DNA of 64,000 nt. Source: Planctomycetota bacterium. GTDB lineage: Bacteria; Planctomycetota; Phycisphaerae; WQYP01. The DNA lies in the NCBI GenBank assembly GCA_021805985.1, contig JAJZDN010000019.1, positions 4,947 to 68,946 on the forward strand, read 5' to 3'. Below the pieces are notes generated by a model. The model was not told the origin of the DNA. It ran no database searches and saw only the letters and a program-made list of their open reading frames with translations. A program made the position numbers and the translations under genes. Positions 2,949-59,465 of the stretch are shown piece after piece. How positions within the stretch are numbered: the first letter of the stretch is position 1; each line of letters starts with the position of its first letter.

Positions 2949-3177
2949 AAGAGGCGCGCTGTCACAGCAAGAAACTAGGCTCCGCAGTGAAGTCCTGTGG
3001 TTCGAGGGGGATCCACCATGGAATCTCGGCACGCGGCATGTAGGTCAAAACAGACTGTAAAAAGGACCGCGGATCACGCGGATTACGCGGATAAAAGACG
3101 GGCATCTCAAATCTCAAATCTCAAATTTGAAATTTGAAATTCGCGCTATTGAGGCTCGATAGTAGGGAGTGGATCGT

Positions 3178-3560
3178 AGACCGCAGGCTGCAGGTGGGTG
3201 TTGTGTTTCGGCGACAGCCGCTCTTTTGTCCCCAGCCTTATTTGCTCTCCTGTTCACCTCTCTAAATTCGCCTGCTCTATTGGGCCTTTGGCCCAATGCG
3301 CAGATCAGGTGATTAGGTGACCGCAGGTGGGTGTTGTGTTTCGGCGACAGCCGCTCTTTTGTCCCCAGCCGAATTTGCTCTCCTGTTCACCTCTCTAAAT
3401 TCGCTGCTCTATTGGGCCTTTGGCCCAATGCGCAGATCAGGTGATTAGGTGACCGCAGGTGGGTGTTGTGTTTTGGCGACAGCCGCCCTGTTGTCCCGAG
3501 CCTTATTTGCTCTCCTGTTCACCTCTCTAAATTCGCCTGCTCTATTGGGCCTTTGGCCCA

Positions 3561-3570
<10 letters not shown>
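3178..3570. repeat. three tandem ~131-bp repeats abutting the 3' end of tRNA-Arg
   Basis: Units begin at about 3178, 3319 and 3450 and are near-identical. Each ends with the hairpin ttgggcctttggcccaa followed by a tgcgc motif that mimics the tRNA 3' end; the last unit runs directly into the tRNA acceptor stem. Confidence 0.8.
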
Positions 3571-3634
<64 letters not shown>

Positions 3635-4072
3635 CATGTCAATGTGCTTCCCGGCTCCATTAACGAATTCAATATTATCTTCAACTATCGCTGAAAAGCA
3701 AGGATTCGCCGATCAGCACCAAATTTCCTGCTGGGAGAAGAAGCGGTCGATTATTTTTCATACGATCCCAACAGGATTGAACCGCGGATTGTGCAGATAA
3801 CGCGGAGAATTGGCCTGCCACCCGGTTAAAGCAGGGCAACCTTTCATCGTGCTTTCCACCAATCGCGGCGGCGGAGCAGTGCGGTGTTGAATCAAACCGC
3901 GTCCCGCGGCGAGCTCGGCGCTGCCACATTGAGCTAAGGGTTAGCATCGCGGGCAGGGCGTTGTTGGAGAAAATGGTTGCGATGGATATTCATGTTGTTG
4001 AGTGGTTGATTCTCTGATTTCCGGTCCTACACTCTTGGGGCCTAAAATCTCGGCTAAATGGAGCTTGTGGCT

Positions 4073-5689: not shown

Positions 5690-6370
5690 TCATATTTCCA
5701 AGGTCAGTTTCTCAGAGGCCAATGGGATCAGTTCGAGGCGCATTGGCTTGCGTGCGGCGGCCATGAGGGTGTCGCGCACTGTCGGAGAAAGCGTATGGAG
5801 ATCTCCGCCATCGAAGCAGGTTAAGGCCTTGAGACTTTCCATGGGCTGGAATGCCGCACCGAATAATGTCCGCGCCGCAGACAAGGCCTGTGCCAAACTT
5901 CCGCCTGCGGCTAACATCACCGCGATATCCTGGTAATCTTTCGCCTCCACGCGTTGCAGGATTACTTTCACCTTGAAAGCCAGCAAATCGGCCGGTGAGG
6001 CGGCTAACACGCTTCCGTCATCGGTAAATTCCGGCACACCAACACGACCATTGGTTATCCTGCCAAAGAAAGAGACCTGCACAGGTCTCTCGCCGGGCAT
6101 ATTATCTGCTGCCAGCAGGGTCCAGCTTTGGGCGGTCTCCTGAAGTACCTGGGCGGTGGCTAAAAATGGAAACGCCTCGGCCACGGCGGGTTTATCCAGC
6201 AAATTATCCGTGAAGAAATCAAAGTCGATGGATTGCCGATGCCCGAGTCGCAATGCCACCGCCGTGCCGCCGTATAGGACAAGCCCCATTGCGGCAGCAG
6301 CACGGAATTGAGGCCAGAGGCGTTTCTGCGCCAGCGGTAAGATATCCCATCGCGTTTTAAACTGCGTCAT
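5690..6370 (-). CDS. nucleotidyltransferase AbiEii/AbiGii-family toxin (type IV TA / abortive infection)
   Basis: 226 aa beginning MTQFKTRWDI...LYGGTAVALRLGHRQSIDFDFF..., recalled as the AbiEii-type (DUF1814) nucleotidyltransferase family. It is translationally coupled (4-nt overlap) to a small upstream ORF. Confidence 0.7.
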   Translation of the reverse strand: MTQFKTRWDILPLAQKRLWPQFRAAAAMGLVLYGGTAVALRLGHRQSIDFDFFTDNLLDKPAVAEAFPFLATAQVLQETAQSWTLLAADNMPGERPVQVSFFGRITNGRVGVPEFTDDGSVLAASPADLLAFKVKVILQRVEAKDYQDIAVMLAAGGSLAQALSAARTLFGAAFQPMESLKALTCFDGGDLHTLSPTVRDTLMAAARKPMRLELIPLASEKLTLEI

Positions 6371-6696
6371 GCCAATCTCCGTTGCGGAAGGGGCGGAATT
6401 TTTTCGCCGTCAGATAGTCCTAGCCGGTGGTGCCAGTAATGCCATGATCGCAAATTAAATTCGCCCGCTTCCGCAGAACACACTACTTCACGTAATCCCG
6501 CATCGCCCACTGCCTCGGTCAATTCGCAGACATCGTCAAAGTCCCCCATGTTCATAACCTGCGCCATGATGCGATGCGGGTACGCCACGGCATCTTCCGG
6601 CGATTTCCACCAGATATATTTTGCGGCCAAACGCTTGAGCAGTTCCTGGTCCATAAAGCACGCATAGAGCATACCCAAAGTGTCAGTAAAACGCAT
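6367..6696 (-). CDS. small protein translationally coupled upstream of the AbiEii toxin; putative cognate antitoxin of unknown family
   Basis: 109-aa ORF whose stop overlaps the toxin start (ATGA). Its start abuts a REP element. No recognisable DNA-binding motif was seen by eye. Confidence 0.4.
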   Translation of the reverse strand: MRFTDTLGMLYACFMDQELLKRLAAKYIWWKSPEDAVAYPHRIMAQVMNMGDFDDVCELTEAVGDAGLREVVCSAEAGEFNLRSWHYWHHRLGLSDGEKIPPLPQRRLA

Positions 6697-6702
6697 TCCG
6701 CG

Positions 6703-6950
6703 GAAAACTCAACGCGAAGAACTCAACGCTGCCGCATTGAGCTACGGTGTCATCGTGATTCGGTGCCGCGTGCCTTCAATGGAAACGATCTTTAGCCCGA
6801 CGCGGCAGCGTCGCGGTTGGACGCGGGATAGGGTGGCGGAAAAAACCGCATCCTCGCCCGGCGCGCACGGGGGTGCCGGCCACGGGGAAACTGCGTTACG
6901 TCCTGAAAACGCATTCCGCGAAGAACTCAACGCTGCCGCATTGAGCTAAT
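6703..6950 (+). repeat. ~250-bp REP-bearing element, copy 1 (REP motif gaactcaacgctgccgcattgagcta at both ends)
   Basis: Near-identical to 7637-7885 in the same orientation. The pair brackets the RAYT gene. Confidence 0.8.
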
Positions 6951-6965
6951 GATGTGCATCCTGAA

Positions 6966-7466
6966 TCAAGGCCGCACGCGGTCGCATAATCGGGGGATAT
7001 CCCTGCGCCAGAAAATTATTGCCTGGGCGGGCAGATAATCATAAAGCAAGTGCCGCAGGTGCGCCCTGTTCTTCACGCGTTGCGGATGGCCATTTCGCGC
7101 CAGCCACCGACGTCCGTAACCATAGGTTCTTCCCAACTGAAGGCTCATGATCTGCTTGAGGGTTTGCTGAACTTTTTTCGGGGAATGCTGCGTTTGCCAC
7201 GCAACAACAATATGCAAATGTGTAGCCTGCGTTGCAACCGCATAAATCTGCCAGTCGCGGCGCTGGGCTGATTCGAGAACAGCGTAAAGAAGAATTTCCT
7301 GATCCTCCCGATGCCAGTAGACGGCGGGGAAGCGGGCAGTGCGGGTCCAATGCAACGCCAGTTTTTCTTCCGGCGCATACCGTCCACGGTTGCGCCGGTA
7401 ATAACCCTTCGGGTTGTCAGCGTTCCAGGTGAAAAAACCGTGGACAATTACATGGTAAACTGGCAT
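6966..7466 (-). CDS. REP-associated tyrosine transposase (RAYT; IS200/IS605-like Y1 HuH transposase)
   Basis: 166 aa with HuH motif (ATHLHIVVAW) and a C-terminal Tyr-containing helix (RHLLYDYLPAQ). The size and the flanking REP elements are typical of TnpA-REP. RBS GGGAGG 5 nt before the ATG. Confidence 0.7.
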   Translation of the reverse strand: MPVYHVIVHGFFTWNADNPKGYYRRNRGRYAPEEKLALHWTRTARFPAVYWHREDQEILLYAVLESAQRRDWQIYAVATQATHLHIVVAWQTQHSPKKVQQTLKQIMSLQLGRTYGYGRRWLARNGHPQRVKNRAHLRHLLYDYLPAQAIIFWRRDIPRLCDRVRP

Positions 7467-7636
7467 GTTAACCTCCCTCTCTGTCTAACAAACCGACCAT
7501 ATTGTCTGCCGCCAGTGCCCGTTTGGCAAGCTGTGGCCGGATCTGCTGGCCGGATTTGCGGTGGCTGATGTGGTGGCACCCTTCACGCATTTGGACTAAT
7601 TGCGACGGGGGGGAGTTCCCTCGTGCCATGAAAACA

Positions 7637-7885
7637 CATCGCGCGAAGAACTCAACGCTGCCGCATTGAGCTACGGGGTCATCGTGATTCGGTGCCGCGT
7701 GCCTTCAATGGAAGCGATCTTTAGCCCGACGCGGCAGCGTCGCGGTTGGACGCGGGATAGGGTTGCGGAAAAACTCGCATCCTCGCCCGGCGCGCACGGG
7801 GGTTCCAGCCACGGGGAAACTGCGTTACGTCATGAAAACGCATCGCGCGGAAAACTCAACGCTGCCGCATTGAGCTACGGGGTCC
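7637..7885 (+). repeat. ~250-bp REP-bearing element, copy 2
   Basis: Direct repeat of 6703-6950 with a few mismatches. Confidence 0.8.
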
Positions 7886-7908
7886 GGACGAGGATCCGGC
7901 GGAGCGGA

Positions 7909-9357
7909 TTATTCTATTTCTGTGCGAAGTAATACGACAGAGGGTGCCTCACGCTGGGCGAGTTTGCGCTGTAAAGTACGCACCGAAATCCCGATGGCAT
8001 GGGCGGCTTTGGTGCGGTTGTTGGAAAAGCGGATCATCGCATTATTAATGGCCTGATGCTCAAGCTGGGCCAGCGTCAGGATGGGCGCGTTGCCCGATGG
8101 CGAGATCATGTTGGAGTCGCCGGAAAAGCTGACCGTGGTAACAGCGTGCGGCACCGTTGCTTCTATGAACGGTTTGGCCAGCATGGGTGGAAGATCACTT
8201 AGAGCAAGGGTGGTTCTGGATTTATCAGAAAGCACCATGGCCCGCTCGATGACATTGAGAAGTTCACGCACATTGCCAGGCCAGTTGTAACGTTCCAATG
8301 CTTCCAACGCTGGCGCACTGACCGAGCTTACATTGCAGTCATTTTGCAAATTCACGCGTTCGATAAAACCGCGCACCAGCAATGGAATATCTTCCACACG
8401 CTCCCGTGGCGGCGGCATGCGAATGGTGATGATGTTTAGGCGATAGTATAAATCTTCACGGAATTGGCCTTTGGCCACCATGGATGGCAAATCCCGGCTT
8501 GTGGCTGCCACCACGCGCGTATCGACTTTAATGTCCCGATGGCCGCCCAGCGGGGTCACAATGCGGTTTTCCAGAACGCGCAGCAGCTTGGCCTGCAGCG
8601 GCAGGGAACAATCACCAATTTCATCAATAAATAAGGTGCCTCCCTTGGCGGCTTCGAATCGGCCCACACGCGTACCAACGGCTCCAGTAAAGGCACCTTT
8701 TTCATAGCCAAATAATTCACTTTCTATCAGGGATTCAGGCATGGCTGCGCAGTTCAGGGCAATAAACGGGCCTGCACTACGGGGAGAATTTCGGTGAATG
8801 GCCTGGGCTGCAAGGTCTTTGCCGGTTCCGGATTCTCCCAGAATCAGAACGGTGCTGAAGGCCTGACTGGAGCGGGCGATCAAACGAAAAACATTTTTCA
8901 TGGCCGACGAATGGCCTAACATCCCATTCTTGGAGCCATCCAACTCCGGTTCGTCCACGGCACTGTCCGGTTTGGCGTTCCCCTGGCAGGCCTGCACCAG
9001 CCCCATGAGCCTGGTGAGCATGAGTTTGGCGTCTATGAGATTATCCATGCCGTGATGCTCCCCACCGCTGATGGATTTAACCATGTCGTCCACGGATTGC
9101 GTTTCATGAACCAGTGGCAGGGGCGTTTCAGGAAAATAAGTCTTCCAGTGGGCCATGAGATCAAGTCCTGAAATGTCGCCCGCAATCACGCCGGCGACAA
9201 TCCCGTCAACTCCCTGGTCCACAAAGTCTAAAGCCTTTTCCACAGAGTCCGTCAGTTTGACGTTGTACCCCGCGTCGGTCAGGAGTCGTTCCATCGCGGT
9301 GCGCTCGGAGGGATTATCTTCAATAACCAGTATCTCAAAGTGATCCTTTGTTTTCAT
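7909..9357 (-). CDS. sigma-54-dependent Fis-family response regulator (NtrC-like: REC + AAA+ + HTH)
   Basis: 482 aa. N-terminal receiver domain (ILVIEDNPSER...D), Walker A GESGTGKDLAAQAIH, a GAFTGA motif and a C-terminal Fis-type HTH. Confidence 0.85.
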   Translation of the reverse strand: MKTKDHFEILVIEDNPSERTAMERLLTDAGYNVKLTDSVEKALDFVDQGVDGIVAGVIAGDISGLDLMAHWKTYFPETPLPLVHETQSVDDMVKSISGGEHHGMDNLIDAKLMLTRLMGLVQACQGNAKPDSAVDEPELDGSKNGMLGHSSAMKNVFRLIARSSQAFSTVLILGESGTGKDLAAQAIHRNSPRSAGPFIALNCAAMPESLIESELFGYEKGAFTGAVGTRVGRFEAAKGGTLFIDEIGDCSLPLQAKLLRVLENRIVTPLGGHRDIKVDTRVVAATSRDLPSMVAKGQFREDLYYRLNIITIRMPPPRERVEDIPLLVRGFIERVNLQNDCNVSSVSAPALEALERYNWPGNVRELLNVIERAMVLSDKSRTTLALSDLPPMLAKPFIEATVPHAVTTVSFSGDSNMISPSGNAPILTLAQLEHQAINNAMIRFSNNRTKAAHAIGISVRTLQRKLAQREAPSVVLLRTEIE

Positions 9358-13141: not shown

Positions 13142-13283
13142 TACCCCGATATACTGCCCCCAATCGTGATTTATCCGATCTCGGTTGGGCACGCCCTGAA
13201 AATGCTCTTACGGTTCTGAGGAATTCGTGGCGTAGCAGTCCTGACGGGTTGGACGCACCGGTGTCATGGAACCGTGTTCCGCA

Positions 13284-13705
13284 GGCGAACTCAACGCTTC
13301 CGCATTGAGCTACGGGACGTAAATCTGGGTTAATCGGTGAAATCTGTGGATCCATTCCGCGGTGGATTGCGTTGGCGATTCGGTAATGGCCGTTCCGACG
13401 GGCGGAACACGACCTTTTATCACCTTGCATTCCGCGGCGAACTCAACGCTTCCGCATTGAGCTACGGGACGTAAATCTGTGTTAATCGGTGAAATCTGTG
13501 GATCCATTCCGCGGTGGGTTGTGTTGGCGATTCGGTAGTGGCCGTTCCGACGGGCGGAACACGGCGTGTCATCACATTGCATCCCGCGGGCGAACTCAAC
13601 GCTTCCGCATTGAGCTACGGGACGTAAATCTGTGTTAATCGGTGAAATCTGTGGATCCATCGCGCGGTGGGTTGCGTTGGCGACTCGGTAGTGCCATTTC
13701 GATGC
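13284..13705. repeat. three tandem ~154-bp repeats, each carrying a REP motif (gaactcaacgcttccgcattgagctacgg)
   Basis: Units begin at about 13284, 13436 and 13590. The ORFs predicted across them translate to repeating peptides and are artefacts. Confidence 0.8.
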
Positions 13706-13946
13706 ATCCTGATAATTGTCACCACAATACTCGCTTTGACTATCCCATGGACGACTATAATTAACTAGCAGCCTGTGCATGGAGCGATTGCTGCGGTTCC
13801 CAATGGGTTAACTGCACAATACACATCTGGGCTACCTCCCGTTCAAGCCGAGGCTGGCTTGTGGTGTCAATGACGATGTCCAGCTTTGAATTGGGACTTC
13901 ATGTTGACAAAGGCTGCAGATGTTGGCAGCGCTTGGAGATCTACCC

Positions 13947-17223: not shown

Positions 17224-17640
17224 GCATGAGCACCGGATGATTAATCCGGTGGTTGATCCAATGCCACCGGGGCGGACGGGGTTACGGGTTACAGGGGACA
17301 GGGGACGCAATGAATGAGTAATGAGTAGAAGCTGGGGAACGATGGGGATATCACCGGAGCACCGGATGGTAATCCGGTGGTTGATCCAGTGCCGCCAACC
17401 ACCACCAAGTTATCAGAACGGCGCTCTATGACACGCTGCACCCTCCGTGAGCACCGGATGGTAATCCGGTGGTTGATCCAGTGCCGCCAACCCACCACCG
17501 GGTTATCACCACGGTGCTCGATGACACGCTGCGCCCTCCGTGAGCACCGGATGGTAATCCGGTGGTTGATCCAATGCCGCCAACCCACCACCGGGTTATC
17601 ACCACGGTGCTCCATGACACGCTGCGCCAGTCGCGACAGG
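17224..17640. repeat. MITE-like palindromic elements: one partial copy plus three tandem 93-bp units (gagcaccggatggtaatccggtgg...ccaccgggttatcaccacggtgctc)
   Basis: Each unit has ~24-bp terminal inverted repeats with an internal caccggat/atccggtg hairpin. The same ends recur at 28773, 31083 and 59325. Confidence 0.75.
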
Positions 17641-17818
17641 CGGACCCACAACTGTGTCATCACGCTATATTCCGCGATCAACCCAACGCTGCCGCGCTGG
17701 GCCAATGGACGGAAATTGGTAGATCGCTATTTCTGCAGCCACGTTGGCGCTCCCGGGAACGGTTAGCTGATATTTCACTCATTGCTGGGCACACAGACTT
17801 TAATAGAAAGATTTTTTC

Positions 17819-20469: not shown

Positions 20470-23298
20470 TTAGTTATTCAATGGCATTGCGCCTCGGCTG
20501 GTGGTTGGGCCGGTGCCCGGGTTGCCGCCCGGTGCTGGATGGGTGCTGGGCGGATTCAGGGTGCTGCCGGACGTCCCGCCCGTTGCAGAAATTGTGCTCT
20601 GGCCATGGGACTTGGCTTTGTTGCCCATCATGCCGCCTGGGGCGGAAGATTTGCCTTGGCCACTTCCGGCACTGGCGGCTGTATTGCCCACGTCGCCATT
20701 GCCACCTTGGCCGCTTGTGGAATTACCCGCTGTGCCGCCCGGGGGAGTTGCGCCTGGGCCATTTCCCGTATTACCCGCTGCGCCCGCAGTGCCGCCTGGT
20801 GTGGAAGCTGATCCTTGGCCAGCTGCGGAGTTGCCGGCGGCAGCGCCGTTTGTTCCGGCGGACGTGCCCTGGTTACTATCCGAATCCTCCCCCTTATTGC
20901 CATTGCTGGCCGTTCCCCTTTGGTCCTTATCAGAACCAGCAGCCGCACCACTTGGAGGGGTGGCACCCTGGCCATTTCCGGAATTGCCGGTTGAGCCAAC
21001 GGCTGCGCCCGGCGTGGAAGATGGGCCTTGAGCATTGGGGGAATCGCCCGTTGAATTGCGTTGTTGTGAATTTCCACTTTGGTCATTTTTAGAATTACCC
21101 TTCATGCCACCACTGCCTGACGTCCCGGTTTGATTGTTTCCGGAATTTGCTGCTGTGCTACCTTGTCCGGCAGTACCACTTTGGCTGCTTCCAGAATTAC
21201 CCGATGCGCCCGCTGTCCCCGAATTGCCGCTTTGAGCATTGCCCGAATCACCGCCAACTGCGGTCTGCTGGTCAACTGACATTAAAAGTGCCGATTGGCC
21301 GCCGGGAGTGCCAGCTCCGCCTTGAACGCTCGTGGAATTACGCATCATTCCGGCTGTGCCGGTAGATGGGCCGTGACCAGTCTTGGCATGGCCTGGCATG
21401 CCAGTTGTCCCGGAATTTCCATTTCTCCCCGATGCGTTGTTACCACCAGTGTTGGAACTTCCGCTTTGGCCGGCCGCGGAATTACCTGTGCCGGAATTTC
21501 CGCTTTGGCCCGCTGCAGAATTACCACCGGTGCCGGCGGCTCCGCCTTGACCGGCAGCGGAGTTACCAGCAGAACCGGAGTTCCCACTTTGGCTATTTTT
21601 AGAATTACTCTTCATGCCACCACTACCTGATTTGCCGTTTTGATTGTTTCCGGAATTCCCGGCTGTGCTGCCCTGTCCGGCAGTACCACTTTGGCCATTT
21701 TTAGAATTACCCTTCATGCCACCAGTACCTGAGGTCCCGTTTTGGTTGTTTCCAGAATTTCCGGCTGTGCTACCTTGTCCCCCAGTACCACTTTGGCTGG
21801 CTCCGGAATTTCCGGCCATGCCGCCCGCTCCACTTTGGCTGTTTCCAGAATTATTCGCTGCACCATTTGCCCCAGGAGTTGCACCTTGGGCAATTCCTGA
21901 ATTGCGCCCCGCACCGCCGGCAGTGGTTTGCTGGTCAACCGACATTAAAAGTACGCCTTGGCCACCTGCTGTTGAGCCGCCGCTTTGCCCGGCTGCAGAA
22001 AAATTACCTGTTGTGCCACCGGTGCCGGAAGTTCCGCTTTGACCCGCTGCAGAATTACCACCGGTGCCGGCGGCTCCGCCTTGACCGGCGGTGGAGTTAC
22101 CAGCAGAACCGGAATTTCCACTTTGGCCATTTTTAGAATTACCCTTCATGCCACCAGTACCTGAGGTCCCGTCTTGGTTGTTTCCAGAATTTCCGGCTGT
22201 GCTACCTTGTCCCGCAGTTCCGCTTTGGCTGCTTCCAGAATTACCCGATGCGCCCGCTGTCCCCGAATTGCCGCTTTGAGCATTGCCGGAGCCGCTGCCC
22301 GCACCGCCGGCTGCGGTCTGCTGGTCAACCGACATTAGAAGGATCGATTGGCCACCTGGTGTTGAGCCGCCGCTTTGCCCGGCTGTAGAAGAATTACCTG
22401 TCGTGCCACCGGTGCCAGCGGCTCCGCCTTGACCGGCGGCGGAGTTACCAGCAGAACCGGATGTTCCACTTCGGCTATTTTTAGAATTACCCTTCATGCC
22501 ACCACTACCTGATGTCCCGTTTTGGTTGGTTCCGGAATTCCCGGCTGTGCTACCCTGCCCGGCAGTTCCGCTTTGGCTGCTTCCAGAATTACCCGATGCA
22601 CCCGCTGTCCCTGAATTGCCGCTTTGAGCATTGCCGGAAGTGCCCCCGTTGCCACCAGCTGCGCTCTGCTGATCAATCGACATTAAAAGTGCAACGCGTC
22701 CACCTGGCGTCGAGTTTCCGTTTTGCCCCGCTGTGGAGCTACCTGTGCCTGAATTTCCGCTTTGGCCTCCTGCGGAATTACCACCGCTGCCGGAATTACC
22801 CGCTGTGCCAGATGATCCACCCGTGCCAGAAGATGATCCTTGGCCACTTCCCGAGTTACCTGCGGTACTGCCGGCCCCCGAAGTCCCGCTCTGACCCGCT
22901 CCAGAATTGCCCGCTGTGGTGCCTGTCCCCGAAGATGTCCCTTGACCGTTTCCGGATTTACCCATCATGCCACCTGTGCCGGCGGCTCCGCTTTGGCCTC
23001 CTGCGGAATTACCCATTGTGCCGCTTTGGCCATTGCCCATCGTGCCGCCTGTACCGGCAGCGGCCCCTTGACCGGTTGTGGAATTGGTCAAGTTTGGTGT
23101 TGTGTCCGCCGAACCTCTGTTCTGCACATCGCGCACAACCTTATTTTTATCCGAGCGTATTTTTGCTTGGTTCATACTCATCGTAAGATGGGAATTATTG
23201 TTGCCGCTGGCACCCGACACGCGAAACCATCCGCGATCGAACCCCACGACAACCAGAACAAGTACCAGTAAAACCAACAATGTAGATATGATTTTCAT
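20470..23298 (-). CDS. secreted/anchored low-complexity Gly/Ser/Thr/Asn/Gln-rich repeat protein (~940 aa)
   Basis: Start set at ATG 23298 (MKIISTLLVLLVLVLVVVGF signal/anchor) with RBS AAGAGGA. The body is almost entirely G/S/T/N/A/Q with at least four ~120-aa tandem repeats marked by LLMS[VI]DQQ[TS]AAGG. The DNA shows matching tandem repeats between 21270 and 22700. Confidence 0.6.
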   Translation of the reverse strand: MKIISTLLVLLVLVLVVVGFDRGWFRVSGASGNNNSHLTMSMNQAKIRSDKNKVVRDVQNRGSADTTPNLTNSTTGQGAAAGTGGTMGNGQSGTMGNSAGGQSGAAGTGGMMGKSGNGQGTSSGTGTTAGNSGAGQSGTSGAGSTAGNSGSGQGSSSGTGGSSGTAGNSGSGGNSAGGQSGNSGTGSSTAGQNGNSTPGGRVALLMSIDQQSAAGGNGGTSGNAQSGNSGTAGASGNSGSSQSGTAGQGSTAGNSGTNQNGTSGSGGMKGNSKNSRSGTSGSAGNSAAGQGGAAGTGGTTGNSSTAGQSGGSTPGGQSILLMSVDQQTAAGGAGSGSGNAQSGNSGTAGASGNSGSSQSGTAGQGSTAGNSGNNQDGTSGTGGMKGNSKNGQSGNSGSAGNSTAGQGGAAGTGGNSAAGQSGTSGTGGTTGNFSAAGQSGGSTAGGQGVLLMSVDQQTTAGGAGRNSGIAQGATPGANGAANNSGNSQSGAGGMAGNSGASQSGTGGQGSTAGNSGNNQNGTSGTGGMKGNSKNGQSGTAGQGSTAGNSGNNQNGKSGSGGMKSNSKNSQSGNSGSAGNSAAGQGGAAGTGGNSAAGQSGNSGTGNSAAGQSGSSNTGGNNASGRNGNSGTTGMPGHAKTGHGPSTGTAGMMRNSTSVQGGAGTPGGQSALLMSVDQQTAVGGDSGNAQSGNSGTAGASGNSGSSQSGTAGQGSTAANSGNNQTGTSGSGGMKGNSKNDQSGNSQQRNSTGDSPNAQGPSSTPGAAVGSTGNSGNGQGATPPSGAAAGSDKDQRGTASNGNKGEDSDSNQGTSAGTNGAAAGNSAAGQGSASTPGGTAGAAGNTGNGPGATPPGGTAGNSTSGQGGNGDVGNTAASAGSGQGKSSAPGGMMGNKAKSHGQSTISATGGTSGSTLNPPSTHPAPGGNPGTGPTTSRGAMPLNN

Positions 23299-23993
23299 AA
23301 TATTCCTCTTATGTTTCAGCCGCCAAAGGTGACACAAACAAACATCACCTAACTTTCTACCCTTGCAATTCCCATGCCCGGAGAATAATTTGGCCAACTT
23401 TCGTTCGCAGGGCACATGCTGGCACGGCGATCGCGCACTTATCCGCCAACCTGTCGGTGTCAGGGTGTCTGATTGGGCCTTAATGCCGCGACATACCACG
23501 TATTTCACATCTTCGGCACGACGAGACGCTTGGATTATTTCTTTCTGATCAACGGCCCCTTCTTTACGTGGGTCACTAAGACAATAATCCGCCAGGCGGC
23601 ATGATTCCTAAACGAAGGCGCTTGCACGCATCATCGTGTAATTGCATACGTTACAGATGATTTCGCATGTACGGCTTCCGCACAGCGCCCCGTGCGCGGG
23701 ACTGCAACTCATGCAAAGGCGGTAATGTAACTTCAATGCCGCATGGCCTGGGAAACCGTTACAGACACTACCTGTTATTAGCTCTGGTACGGCGTTTGCT
23801 AACTTTATTATGCGGTTAGTGAATGTCTGGAGTCATAGATTCGGAGAAAGAAGAATGACTTTAAGGATTCTATAAAACGAAGAAACCCTACCGGGAGGAA
23901 ATCTATTGTGCCTGACCTGCGTAAGGTGTTGCACAGCGAACTTGCCGGAGCAAAGTAGTAGGAAAAAACCATTAATTTTTAGGAGTACGTATT

Positions 23994-24309: not shown

Positions 24310-24797
24310 TTAGATCCCCCGGCGGACCGCATTCATCCTCGGCGCCTCCGCATCGAGCTACGTATTTGCCGTTAGCTGATGCGGAAGCGTCGCGGTAGGA
24401 TGCGGTTCGTTATACTGATTACCGATGCTGCATCGATCTGGATGGCCGCATCGGTCCCGACGCATGAGATCTCTGTATCATCAAACCATATTCCGCCTCT
24501 AACCCAACGCTGCCGCATTGGGCTGGGGGCGATCGTCAGGCTTGGGCATCGAATATAGCGGCGGAAAATAACTGGACCTTTCATCGTCACGCAGAATTGC
24601 AAAACACGAATACGTCTTTCTGGTATGCACTTGGCATGACCGCCCACTTGTTGTGCCCGCCTCATCGCCATGGTCCCCAACTTGAGTCATCAACTTAGCG
24701 CATCACCTTCCGGCATATCTTGGGGCTTACCTTGGGGCCTTGGCAAGGATGCCTTTGCGTGCGATAATCCTTTCTGAAAATTGAACCCGCACTGGAG

Positions 24798-28772: not shown

Positions 28773-29061
28773 CCCGCCATAGAGCACCGTGGTGATAACC
28801 CGATGGTTGGCCTGGGGACCAGGTTACGGGTTACGGGGGACAGTTACAGGGAGGGGGGTGTCAGTAATTGCAGTAATTGCAGTATTATCAGTACATTCAG
28901 AGTTTGGAACCTAGAACCTGGAATCTGGAATGTCGAACGTACTGCCAATACTGATAATACTGAATGTACCGCCAATACTGTCCCCTGTAACCCCGTCCGC
29001 CCCGTCCGCCCCGGCGGCACTGGATCAACCACCGGATTATCATCCGGTGCTCTACAAGATT
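28773..29061. mobile_element. MITE-like element (~290 bp) with terminal inverted repeats and internal microsatellites
   Basis: Left end gagcaccgtggtgataacccg...gggttacgggttacgggggacag; right end ctgtcccctgtaacccc...cggattatcatccggtgctc is its reverse complement. The interior has cagtaattgcagtaattgcag and ggaacctagaacctggaatctgg repeats. A reverse-oriented REP motif follows at 29075-29103. Confidence 0.6.
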
Positions 29062-29188
29062 AACACAGATTTTCGTCCGTAGCTCAATGCGGCAGCGTTG
29101 AGTTCGCGGCGGAATGCAATGCGATGACACGCCGTATTCCGCCCGTCGCAAACCGCTCCTCCTCAGATAATCTCTCCCGCGCGGGCGA

Positions 29189-31082: not shown

Positions 31083-31331
31083 AGCACCGGATGATTAATC
31101 CGGTGGTTGATCCAGTGCCGCCGGGGCGGGCGGGGTTACAGGTTACGGGTTACAGGTTACAAGGGGACAAGTATTGGCGGTACATTCAGTATTATCAGTA
31201 TTGGCAGTACGTTCGACATTCCAGGTTCCAGGTTCCAGGTTCCAGGTTCTAGGTTCTAGGTTCTAGGTTCTAGGTTCCAATCCCTGAATGTACTGATAAT
31301 ACTGCAATTACTGGTTTATCACTGCGGTGCT
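31083..31331. mobile_element. MITE-like element of the same family as 28773-29061
   Basis: Left end gagcaccggatgattaatccggtggttgatccagtgccgcc...gggttacaggttacgggttacagg; interior ggttccagg/ggttctagg microsatellite; right end ...cactgcggtgctc. Confidence 0.6.
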
Positions 31332-58118: not shown

Positions 58119-58729
58119 TGGTATGAATCCTCAAAAATAACTCCGCCATCAACATCAACGTAATGGCTCCAGTCTTTTATACCCGATTAACAGCCGCCGC
58201 AAAAGCTCGTGCCCCAACCCGACGATTCGACCGAAAGATGCAAAAAAAGCAAAACGCTATTCCCTGGCAACGATTTGCCACACACGGGGGCCGACTAGGG
58301 TGATCAGCCTCCATTTTAGGTAAGCAGTGGGTCAATGTGGCCAAGATGGCCAAGTTACGGGGTAGGACCCTGTCCGAGTAATCGCTGGGTTGCGACGGCG
58401 TGATTTTTGGCACCCATCAAGAAGCCGCGACGATGGCGTACCTGACAGGGATGGTACTCCGAGGAGCCGCGCCGCAGAGGGGGGCCAAAAAGCACGCCGC
58501 CCTACGGGTGGGCCTGAAATGCCCCGTCTGCTTTGTTGTCGGATCTCGCAGACTCATCATTAAGAGTCGGCTCAATCCTCCGCCGCGCATACGGGACATT
58601 TCAGACCCATCGCAATCCCGGCCATTACTCGGACAGGCTCCCAGGTGGCCAAGTTGGACATGTTGATGAATGGATTGATTTTGGCGGGTCTGATTCAAGG
58701 TGGCCAAGATGGCCAAGATGTTTGAGGTT

Positions 58730-59465
58730 TTAGTATTTAGTATTTAGGAGTTAGGAGTTGGGAGTTAGGAACTGGCTTAGGTTACAGGTTACGGGTTACA
58801 GGGGACAGCCGGCGAAATGCGGGGCAGTGATTTTCTTTAGGGTCACGACGGGAAAGAACCGCGGATCACACGGGCATCGGGCGGCGGCTCGATAGAGCAG
58901 AGAAAGTCGAGCAGGTGAGCAGTAGAGCAGATTCGGCTGGCGCAAAAGAGTGGCTTTCGCCGTAATAAAAGGCCTCCTGCGGCCGAGTGGAGCCGTGGCG
59001 TATCGGGCGGGTTATTTACTTTTCAAGCAGCAGCAGCATCAATGATCAATGATCAAAGAGCGGTATTGGGAAAGCTATAGGGCGCGGAGGGCGAGCGTAA
59101 TGGGTAGTGAATAATGAGTAATGAGTAATGAATAGAGAGGAGGAGTTGGCTTAGGTTCCAGGTTCCAGGTTACAGGCCGCACGGGGCGGAGGATCCACCG
59201 ATTTCACCGATTACACAGATTTCTGGTCTGGCGGCGCACGAGGTTACGGGTTACGGGTTACAGGGGACAGCGGCCGACGCAAAGAATAACGGGTAATGAG
59301 TAACAACTGGGGAACGATGAGGATATCACCAGAGCACCGGATGGTAATCCGGTGGTTGATCCAGTGCCGCGAGCCAACCGCGGGCTGGATGAGATTTCAG
59401 ATCTCAGATTCCAGGTTCCAGATTCCAGATTCCAAATTCTTTCGGCAGTATGGTCGCCAGATCGG
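58730..59465. repeat. composite repetitive region (microsatellites ttagtatttag/gttaggagtt/ggttacaggttacgggttacagg/ggttccagg, REP-module fragments, one gagcaccggatggtaatccggtgg copy)
   Basis: Shares modules with 13284-13705, 17224-17640, 28773-29061 and 31083-31331. The ORFs called here are artefacts. Confidence 0.6.

Follow-up and report, generated by a model that had tools for sequence, protein, structure and literature searches.

What relationship holds between a small transposase gene and the repeats that surround it in a planctomycete genome? The question is raised by a 64,000-nucleotide stretch of DNA (hereafter the window) from a Planctomycetota bacterium of the class Phycisphaerae (GenBank GCA_021805985.1, contig JAJZDN010000019.1, positions 4,947 to 68,946), in which a gene resembling those of REP-associated tyrosine transposases (RAYTs; REP, repetitive extragenic palindrome) lies between two near-identical elements. 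An earlier note on this DNA had described the elements as direct 250-bp repeats with a REP core at each end, contrasted them with the inverted REP pairs of canonical RAYT loci, and proposed a recent duplication or a composite unit mobilised by the transposase. The analysis described here leads to a different account, to which we assign a probability of roughly 0.8: the locus is a REPtron, that is, one RAYT-like Y1 HUH transposase gene nested in a head-to-tail array of its cognate repeat.

A transposase gene nested in a repeat array

The two elements occupy positions 6713-6948 and 7642-7877. They are 236 nt long, 95% identical without gaps (12 mismatches) and in the same orientation, with a start-to-start distance of 929 nt, and they enclose an open reading frame (ORF) of 166 aa on the minus strand (6966-7466). 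The core, GAACTCAACGCTGCCGCATTGAGCTA, has eight matches with at most three mismatches in the window, against 0.00 expected from 100 shuffles. Four of these lie at the element ends, all in one orientation (plus strand, 6719, 6923, 7648 and 7852); the others, at 13287, 13439 and 13592 on the plus strand and at 29080 on the minus strand, recover the tandem triplet at 13.3 kb and the inverted copy at 29.08 kb that had been reported before. An independent assembly from another sample (L001) has the identical layout, with 99.76% identity across 4981 nt, which indicates that the locus is not an assembly artefact.

Within each element lies a diverged, inverted partner of the core motif (REP-b, as opposed to REP-a at the ends; Table 1), which the earlier note had overlooked. 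Alignment resolves the locus into a 204-nt array unit, in which a spacer of 113 nt (L1) separates REP-a from the inverted REP-b and a linker of 46 nt (L2) leads on to the next REP-a. Each of the two elements corresponds to 1.15 such units, and the gene and its leader stand where the distal half of one unit would be. Because REP-b is present in each element, the emphasis on direct instead of inverted repeats largely dissolves, and the contrast with canonical inverted pairs was overstated. Nor are the elements the product of a one-off recent duplication; they are the stumps of a head-to-tail array whose layout is conserved in relatives. REP-a copy 1, L1, and REP-b copy 1 form one doublet of ~158 nt with the GTAG ends outward, similar to a REPIN (two REPs paired in inverted orientation). 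Most of the 12 mismatches between the copies lie in the L1 spacer, and the REP cores, which make up ~70 nt, contain none; by our own calculation, the chance of finding 0 of 12 differences in the REP cores under a uniform spread is ~0.015.

The nested layout recurs in relatives whose protein is 84-85% identical and whose RAYT ORF has ~81-88% nucleotide identity. There, the gene occupies the equivalent array position, with REP-a and ~85 nt of L1 followed by a gene-specific leader, the gene, and a further REP-a 16-17 nt past the stop codon. In the window this last distance is 16 nt (REP-a copy 3), and a REP-a stands at the equivalent position in L002-L008 and L055. The array of L055 comprises six upstream and seven downstream units, all co-oriented with the gene, and L006, L007, and L003 are similar. 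Tandem reiteration of alternating REP subtypes with conserved linkers, typical of bacterial interspersed mosaic elements (BIMEs), was found for REP-a/L1/REP-b/L2, with 1.15 + 1.15 units at this locus and 6 + 7 in L055.

The ORF matches the Pfam family Y1_Tnp with 25.6 bits (cut-off 23), and its sole NCBIfam match is the IS200 model NF033573, at 23 bits versus a cut-off of 55. Five close homologues were found among 5.8 billion clusters, and a HMMER scan of 1.84 billion representatives returned 314 relatives at E values up to 1e-3. Every relative with an organism name is a planctomycete, and some carry the annotation "REP element-mobilizing transposase RayT" from the Joint Genome Institute (JGI). 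In 62 aligned family members, H83 and H85 of the HUH motif and Y144 are invariant. An AlphaFold2 model based on this alignment reached a predicted local distance difference test (pLDDT) score of 94.8 and places Y144 and Q148 on the C-terminal helix; a first model built from 6 sequences was poor (pLDDT 59) and was not used. Each of the best 30 Foldseek matches in the PDB is a Y1 transposase (IS200, IS608, ISDra2, or 4er8), with E values of 1e-4 to 4e-4. The family profile detects ISDra2 TnpA at E = 0.003 and Escherichia coli TnpA-REP (4er8) at E = 0.13, and a phmmer search of the PDB with the single protein gave no match; the link to solved Y1 transposases runs via the family profile and the predicted fold.

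Judged by predicted fold and putative catalytic residues, the protein is a RAYT-like Y1 HUH transposase. The earlier identification as a RAYT therefore stands as far as the Y1 HUH family is concerned, but the class-2 signature of the RAYT groups 1-5 of Bertels and co-workers is unmatched. The motifs are THLH, RRWL, and YLPAQ, with a family consensus of THxH, RxWF, and YLPxH; in the sequence Y144-L-P-A-Q148 the residue at +4 is Q, where most family members have H. These motifs match none of the eleven subclasses in Table 1 of Quentin et al. (PMC6006769). A single tblastn match to the gene was found in the window, and one in each related contig.

The leader of the gene is conserved in L003 and L055. 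It contains a promoter-like TTGCCA-17-GACAAT at 7529-7501, in a scan that was not above chance, and a GGAGG ribosome-binding site at 7476-7472; over 6300-8100, scans for sigma-70 promoters and intrinsic terminators gave chance level only. Homology to the array unit extends up to about GTGCGTGCCGGG, and the leader diverges beyond it. Repeats of ATCCGGCC are found at 7534-7559, as two to three direct copies of (A/G)ATCCGGCC that lie directly upstream of the conserved promoter-like site and are also present in L003 (~180-235). These repeats could serve as an operator for autoregulation.

The REP hairpin and the dispersed doublet

Read on the minus strand, REP-a consists of a tetranucleotide, (G/T)TAG, followed by an imperfect palindrome, CTCAATGC-GGCA-GCGTTGAG, with an 8-bp stem and a GGCA loop. 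The sequence of REP-b is (T/G)TAG-CCCGACGC-GGCA-GCGTCGCG. The hairpin is more stable on the GTAG strand (-6.4 kcal/mol) than on its complement (-4.0 kcal/mol), because a T-G wobble on the former is replaced by a C-A mismatch on the latter. Across 27 distinct variants, 90.7% of the stem cells are paired, compared with 24-48% when the pairing is slid as a control; of the eight stem pairs, three vary on both sides (19 cells), and the observed score was reached by 0 of 500 shuffles. The core is a true REP, as had been proposed: GTAG and an imperfect palindrome, dispersed and extragenic, with a hairpin that is backed by covariation.

A covariance model built from the 27 variants identifies 15 members of the REP family in the window, six at the locus and nine elsewhere. 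All lie within 3.9-29.1 kb and between long ORFs, 11 on the minus and 4 on the plus strand. They include the diverged copies at 17683-17705 and 24330-24525 that the earlier note had listed, with scores of 36.2, 34.3, 40.5, and 20.1 bits. GC skew over the 64 kb was uninformative on replication direction, and therefore on whether the 11:4 strand ratio reflects a lagging-strand bias of the GTAG strand. At the gathering threshold, Rfam finds tRNA-Arg alone in the window, a group II intron alone in related loci, and no family that matches the repeats, and RNAalifold applied to 35 doublets returns the two REP hairpins alone, with no consensus fold inside the 113-nt spacer.

The doublet, rather than the single hairpin, recurs as a unit. 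The window and the fetched loci together hold 90 REP-a instances. A REP-b follows 36 of them at no more than 260 nt downstream, and for 33 of the 36 the distance falls between 106 and 116 nt (mostly 113-115). Doublets are found at unrelated intergenic sites in several metagenome-assembled genomes (MAGs), and the blocks inside their spacer are conserved, as seen when 78 REP-a instances and 35 doublets are aligned. Most other copies are half elements, composed of REP-a and a conserved 3' extension of ~90 nt. The whole unit folds with both arms paired (z = -2.1 for the GTAG strand and -0.7 for its complement). REP-a/L1/REP-b is a REPIN- or BIME-like element, in which two inverted REPs are replicated as one unit.

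The exact REP-a core occurs in 41 stretches of GTDB representative genomes, all from six Phycisphaerales/Planctomycetota MAGs (L009-L049: ZJ5.bin40, clean5707, clean1592, WY1.bin60, YP3.bin105, and JA3.bin18), with at least 20 loci in ZJ5.bin40. Over syntenic genes, the window is ~88% identical to clean1592 and 81-85% identical to ZJ5.bin40. As far as the search tools tell, the REP sequence family appears to be new, its exact core being confined to these six MAGs. A near-perfect hairpin of ~55 nt, AAAGGTACCTGACACCTTT...AAAGGTGTCAGGTACCTTT, lies between a REP-a extension and the gene of a major facilitator superfamily (MFS) transporter in ZJ5.bin40 (L020, 5490-5560), and a motif similar to AAAGGTGTCAGGTACCTTT is found downstream of a REP in L045. 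A CRISPR array was considered and rejected, as the "spacers" are not unique but recur with 95% identity from copy to copy, and no cas-like ORF adjoins the locus.

Table 1. Repeat array, transposase gene, and further REP copies, listed from the sigma-54 regulator gene onward along the sense strand and then elsewhere in the window; scores are from the covariance model.
Feature	Position	Strand	Characteristics
REP-a copy 1	7855..7878	-	GTAG + CTCAATGC-GGCA-GCGTTGAG; exact core; 46.1 bits; 30 nt from stop of sigma-54 regulator gene
Spacer L1 (~110-113 nt), right unit	7745..7854	-	conserved blocks GCGGAA/GCGCGA, CATGAC, CCCCGT, GTGCGCGCCGGG
REP-b copy 1, inverted partner	7721..7744	+	TTAG + CCCGACGC-GGCA-GCGTCGCG; 43.3 bits; inverted repeats
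Linker L2 (46 nt), REP-b to next REP-a	7675..7720	-	unit alignment
REP-a copy 2, directly upstream of transposase gene on sense strand	7651..7674	-	exact core; 45.8 bits
Partial L1 and gene-specific leader	7467..7650	-	~85 nt of L1 5' part alignable to unit, then leader
Transposase gene, RAYT-like Y1 HUH, 166 aa	6966..7466	-	Pfam Y1_Tnp; H83-L-H85; putative nucleophile Y144; Q148
REP-a copy 3, TTAG variant	6926..6949	-	44.9 bits
Spacer L1, left unit	6816..6925	-	unit alignment
REP-b copy 2, inverted partner	6792..6815	+	43.3 bits
Linker L2, left unit	6746..6791	-	unit alignment
REP-a copy 4, last REP of the array	6722..6745	-	exact core; 45.3 bits
Truncated 3' extension of REP-a copy 4	6682..6721	-	14-nt internal duplication TTGAGTTcttcgcg / TTGAGTTttccgcg
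Three further REP-a copies	13290..13618	-	152-nt-period tandem array; other linker; no REP-b
Three diverged REPs incl. tight inverted pair	24334..24529	24334-, 24369+, 24499-	covariance model
Single REP-a with conserved 3' extension	29079..29102	+	sole full REP-a on plus strand
Diverged REP-a	17682..17705	-	CCCAGCGC-GGCA-GCGTTGGG; compensating stem changes; adjoins 93-nt tandem array
Degenerate REP-a between tRNA-Arg and mnmE	3914..3937	-	covariance model

At the downstream end of the array, the ATG (6696) of a 109-aa ORF (6367-6696, minus strand), previously noted to abut the left element, falls within the 3' extension of the last REP-a, a conserved sequence (GCGGAATGCG). No family matches this ORF, which overlaps by 4 nt the start of an AbiEii toxin gene (5690-6370). 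Translation may in truth begin at another ATG, eight codons further on, and the 5' untranslated or promoter region of this toxin-antitoxin-like pair may be formed by the REP.

Several other repeats are present in the window. The 152-nt-period array (13277-13693) contains 2.7 copies, and a 156-aa ORF across it (13310-13780, minus strand) is probably spurious. A 132-nt-period array (3190-3566; 2.8 copies, 95% matches) abuts the 3' end of tRNA-Arg(ACG) (3561-3636, minus strand); each of its units ends in a TTGGGCC-ttt-GGCCCAA hairpin, and contig L001 ends within it. A second repeat family, GAGCACCGGATGGTAATCCGGTGGTTGATCCAGTGCCGCC, forms a 93-nt tandem array at 17357-17628 (2.9 copies) and occurs singly at 29020-29060 (inverted), 59327-59368, and L011 4207-4371. 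It lies within ~100 nt of REP-a at three of four sites (17.4 kb, 29.0 kb, and L011), the 59.3-kb copy having no REP nearby, and a member with 86% identity also adjoins a REP in ZJ5.bin40. Intergenic tandem runs of heptamers (ATCTCAA, GGTTACA, TTCCAGG, AGGTTAC, GTAATGA, and AGATTCC), which resemble the short tandemly repeated heptamers of cyanobacteria, are found at 3104-3141, 28900-28940, 31134-31279, 58696-58802, 59097-59261, and 59392-59439. Finally, a 1012-aa ORF (20470-23508, minus strand) encodes a repetitive protein with internal tandem repeats of 51, 102, and 348 nt.

Array growth, gene turnover, and rival explanations

Based on the layout of the locus and its relatives, and by analogy with E. 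coli TnpA-REP and the IS608 and ISDra2 transposases for catalysis, cleavage site, and active strand, a simple model would suggest the following sequence of events. In transiently single-stranded DNA, the REP hairpins would fold on the GTAG strand, which is the sense strand of the gene. The protein would bind the hairpin together with its GTAG foot, and Y144 would cut beside the hairpin, with a metal ion held by H83, H85, and probably Q148. Rejoining of the strands by the enzyme would copy doublets and half elements into other intergenic sites, and, combined with ordinary recombination between units, arrays would expand, shrink, and homogenise. In this scheme the transposase, rather than host recombination, would be the builder of the arrays. 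An active RAYT-REP system, as the earlier note had suggested, is plausible.

The strongest alternative leaves array growth to the host. Unequal crossing-over or replication slippage would duplicate a REP along with adjacent DNA, and the gene would be incidental, maybe an inactive relic. Units are 90-94% identical within a genome and 70-80% between genomes, while the RAYT ORF is 81-88% identical between genomes. Between genomes the units are thus less alike than the gene, whereas within a genome they are close to one another; the arrays are homogenised or re-amplified in each lineage, and within-genome homogenisation is what gene conversion would be expected to produce. The 152-nt array, which lacks REP-b, and the 132-nt and 93-nt arrays, which lack REPs, suggest a general tendency of this genome to form tandem arrays, and clusters of REPs "reiterated in tandem along with flanking DNA" are known from many species (PMC3733652). 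In contrast, an inactive relic does not fit well with the intact ORF, the invariant catalytic residues, the ribosome-binding site, and the leader conserved in relatives, and recombination alone does not explain the presence of the ~158-nt doublet at unrelated intergenic sites.

The association of the gene with REPs also extends to distant members of the family. Four members with 28-37% identity are each flanked by their own tetranucleotide-and-palindrome repeats. In Posidoniimonas polymericola (L051) there are two inverted doublets, GTAG/GCAG-CCCACCCC-GCCA-GGGGTGGG, one per side and direct to each other; a MAG from NCBI (L052) has co-oriented tandem repeats, (A/C)TAG/CCAG-CCGCGGGT-GGCA-ACCCGCGG, on both sides; and a metagenome contig (L053; ENA/NCBI) has ATAG-tagged palindrome doublets. 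A Phycisphaeraceae MAG (L050), with one inverted pair and a CTAA foot, is the exception to the GTAG-like feet ((G/A/C)TAG or CCAG/GCAG) seen in the other three of the four loci. All five loci examined, the window included, are REPtron-like, which argues against an incidental gene. Host recombination as the origin of the arrays is therefore doubtful as a full account, though it keeps appreciable weight; it is limited to array growth and in that respect compatible with the REPtron reading.

A second alternative is an autonomous insertion sequence (IS) of the IS200/IS605 type, in which a segment of ~750 bp from REP-a (7674) through leader and gene to REP-a (6926) would be the mobile element and the dispersed REPs its solo ends or miniature derivatives. 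As with IS608 and ISDra2, the hairpins nearest to the gene (7651-7674 and 6926-6949) are direct and share the sense strand; the segment has roughly the length of IS200, the spacing in Y144-L-P-A-Q148 fits the class 1 signature Y---Q (Table 1 of PMC6006769), and the IS200 model is the only NCBIfam hit. That hit, however, is far under the equivalog cut-off, and most family members have H rather than Q at +4.

The distribution of the gene bears on the same question. Its neighbourhoods differ among the window, L003, and L055, which are different genomes, and comparison with relatives for an empty site, as proposed in the earlier note, found the gene present in some and absent from others. In ZJ5.bin40 (L020), one REP-a of matching orientation, with no transposase gene, comes after the orthologous sigma-54 regulator gene, and the genes beyond differ. 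In clean5707 (L010), 96.8% identity with the region downstream of the P0001 gene (L003) begins exactly at the foot of REP-a, upstream of which a tetratricopeptide repeat (TPR)-like gene is found where L003 has the transposase. The gene was gained or lost at a REP foot, a statement that leaves direction and mechanism aside.

Such a break would suit an insertion sequence, but deletion of RAYT genes is already known in E. coli strains (PMC3733652). Moreover, the gene is present in one copy in the window and one per related contig, and it is the doublet of REPs, not accompanied by the gene, that occurs in many copies, as expected of REPtrons (PMC6006769). No second context of the gene was confirmed: the apparent second upstream context in L003 is the 3' end of a group II intron (L003 61-140; Rfam RF00029, 54.4 bits), which ends exactly 143 nt upstream of the RAYT start inside an L1 remnant. 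The two upstream contexts of the P0001 gene were accordingly dropped as evidence of mobility, one flank being the intron end exactly at the junction. L003, L004, and L005 all start 140 nt before that junction (k-1 of k141 assemblies), at what is a de Bruijn branch at the repeat end, and L004 and L005 carry a different 140-nt flank there. Overall, an autonomous insertion sequence is an unlikely description of the locus.

A related reading is hinted at by the class-1-like Y-x3-Q motif, the direct hairpins, the differing neighbourhoods, and the presence/absence break at the GTAG foot. The gene and its two nearest co-oriented REP-a copies might constitute a still-mobile IS200-like unit, intermediate between IS200-type insertion sequences and domesticated RAYTs, whose enzyme would join REP foot to REP foot and thereby seed REPINs and build head-to-tail arrays able to carry cargo, the gene itself included. 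We regard this as a speculative reading, with a small chance of being correct.

In a third alternative, the main role of the repeats would be in RNA or regulation (as terminators, stabilisers of mRNA, or sites for gyrase or nucleoid proteins), and the link to the transposase would be historical. G-T pairing in the stem on one strand, as in RNA hairpins, is an argument that has been used before (PMC3733652), and a T run often lies 3' of REP-a. No terminator-like site coincides with a REP at the locus, however, several REPs in the window lie between divergent genes instead of at 3' ends, and Rfam has no matching family. This explanation appears improbable, and a host function would in any case leave the mobilisation mechanism possible.

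It is very hard to sustain that the elements are remnants of a duplicated protein-coding gene, the condition under which the earlier note would have been refuted: mechanical ORFs do span them (6680-6949, plus strand, 89 aa; 7600-7932, plus strand, 110 aa), but searches of Pfam and NCBIfam with E values up to 1 gave nothing for these, homologous units (185, 186, 190, 191, 197, 198, and 203-219 nt) do not differ by multiples of three, many intergenic spaces contain the sequence, in one orientation or the other, and conservation is focused on hairpins with compensatory changes, all of which indicates non-coding DNA.

Some observations weigh against the REPtron reading itself. The match to Y1_Tnp is just above threshold and the IS200 score well below its own, and by profile the family is no nearer to E. 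coli TnpA-REP than to ISDra2 TnpA; the protein lacks the class-2 RAYT Y-motif YIxxNP. The number of array units was read from metagenomes assembled from short reads, and near-identical contigs do not agree on it: L007 has three upstream units where L055 has six, and copy numbers are therefore best taken as approximate or polymorphic. A peptide-pattern scan of GTDB representatives found no RAYT, including in the six REP-bearing MAGs, which could reflect binning dropout or REPs that persist without the enzyme. Most gene-bearing contigs are just 1-7 kb long and end in arrays, and the gene has probably been lost from bins via assembly breaks: as arrays break short-read assemblies, the gene would be left on small, unbinned contigs, while the REPs stay visible in MAGs.

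Comparison with known REP systems

To our knowledge, work on REPs and RAYTs to date has been almost all in Proteobacteria. The locus provides a clean, well-delimited example for Phycisphaerae and introduces a small transposase family, apparently centred on Planctomycetota, that standard models barely detect. It suggests that canonical GTAG REPs can pair with a Y1 enzyme outside class 2. More generally, the relatives offer a natural series of array sizes around the gene, from about 2 to 13 assembled units, which is handy for studying array growth.

The closest parallel is the E. coli REPtron, in which tnpA-REP (yafM) is flanked by the inverted pairs of BIMEs (PMC6006769; structure 4ER8). In both systems, a Y1 HUH gene, the only one seen in the window here, is flanked by several of its own GTAG-tagged REPs, the repeats are dispersed intergenically, and two REP subtypes alternate in orientation (Y and Z2 there, REP-a and REP-b here) to give inverted doublets; the predicted fold also matches 4er8. 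The planctomycete protein differs in having ~12% sequence identity, YLPAQ in place of YIHYNP, and THLH in place of DHLH, and the locus differs in its doublet spacer (~113 nt, compared with tens of nt in BIMEs) and in its strict head-to-tail nesting, by which the hairpins next to the gene, left and right, point the same way along the sense strand.

As in the REPIN-RAYT systems of Pseudomonas (Bertels & Rainey, PMC3116915; groups 2/3, PMC5581495), two inverted REPs and the conserved spacer between them make up the replicating unit, a cognate transposase gene is flanked by the repeats, and the repeat population is lineage-specific. Here, however, the doublet is longer (~158 nt), many copies are half elements (REP-a and ~90 nt), long tandem arrays are common, the transposase falls outside groups 1-5 by motif, and conserved gene synteny across species was not seen in the few loci at hand. 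With IS200/IS605 elements (the TnpA proteins of IS608 and ISDra2) the locus shares the Y1 fold, Y-x3-Q, subterminal hairpins on the same strand, and a segment of ~0.75 kb, but it has no tnpB, its hairpins rather than its gene are multi-copy, and multiple gene-bearing copies were not seen in the window or contigs.

Among the classes of Quentin et al. (2018; PMC6006769), class 2, the RAYTs, is defined by the Y-motif YIxxNP, D/N-H-u-H, and WQ/WE, and class 3 TnpA-Y1 by NHVH, W[TA], and YV[VI]xEQ (Y-x4-Q), with a flanking CnGA foot and no GTAG. The protein described here resembles class 3, which is found in Planctomycetes and Acidobacteria, in being rare, in occurring in planctomycetes, in its size (~170-180 aa in that class), in its REPtron-like flanks, and in a Y-motif that ends in Q. 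Its THLH and YLPAQ motifs (family YLPxH) and its canonical GTAG REPs set it apart from class 3 by these criteria.

The repeats themselves resemble the GTAG REP super-family, whose members form dimers and clusters of dimers that are tandemly reiterated with flanking DNA and occur in the Planctomycetes-Verrucomicrobia-Chlamydiae (PVC) superphylum (Di Nocera et al. 2013, PMC3733652). Shared features are GTAG at the end of the stem-loop, "HH" dimers (GTAG outside), tandem dimer clusters, occurrence in the PVC superphylum, and G-T pairs in the stem; the dimer spacing of 113-115 nt here exceeds the usual 20-100 bp (PMC3733652). The essentials of the system have thus been described before for REPtrons, REPINs/BIMEs, and GTAG REPs (PMC3733652, PMC6006769, PMC3116915). 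New are the Phycisphaerae lineage, the REP sequence family, the 113-nt spacer of the doublet, the strict head-to-tail nesting of the gene, and a transposase clade outside the published subclasses.

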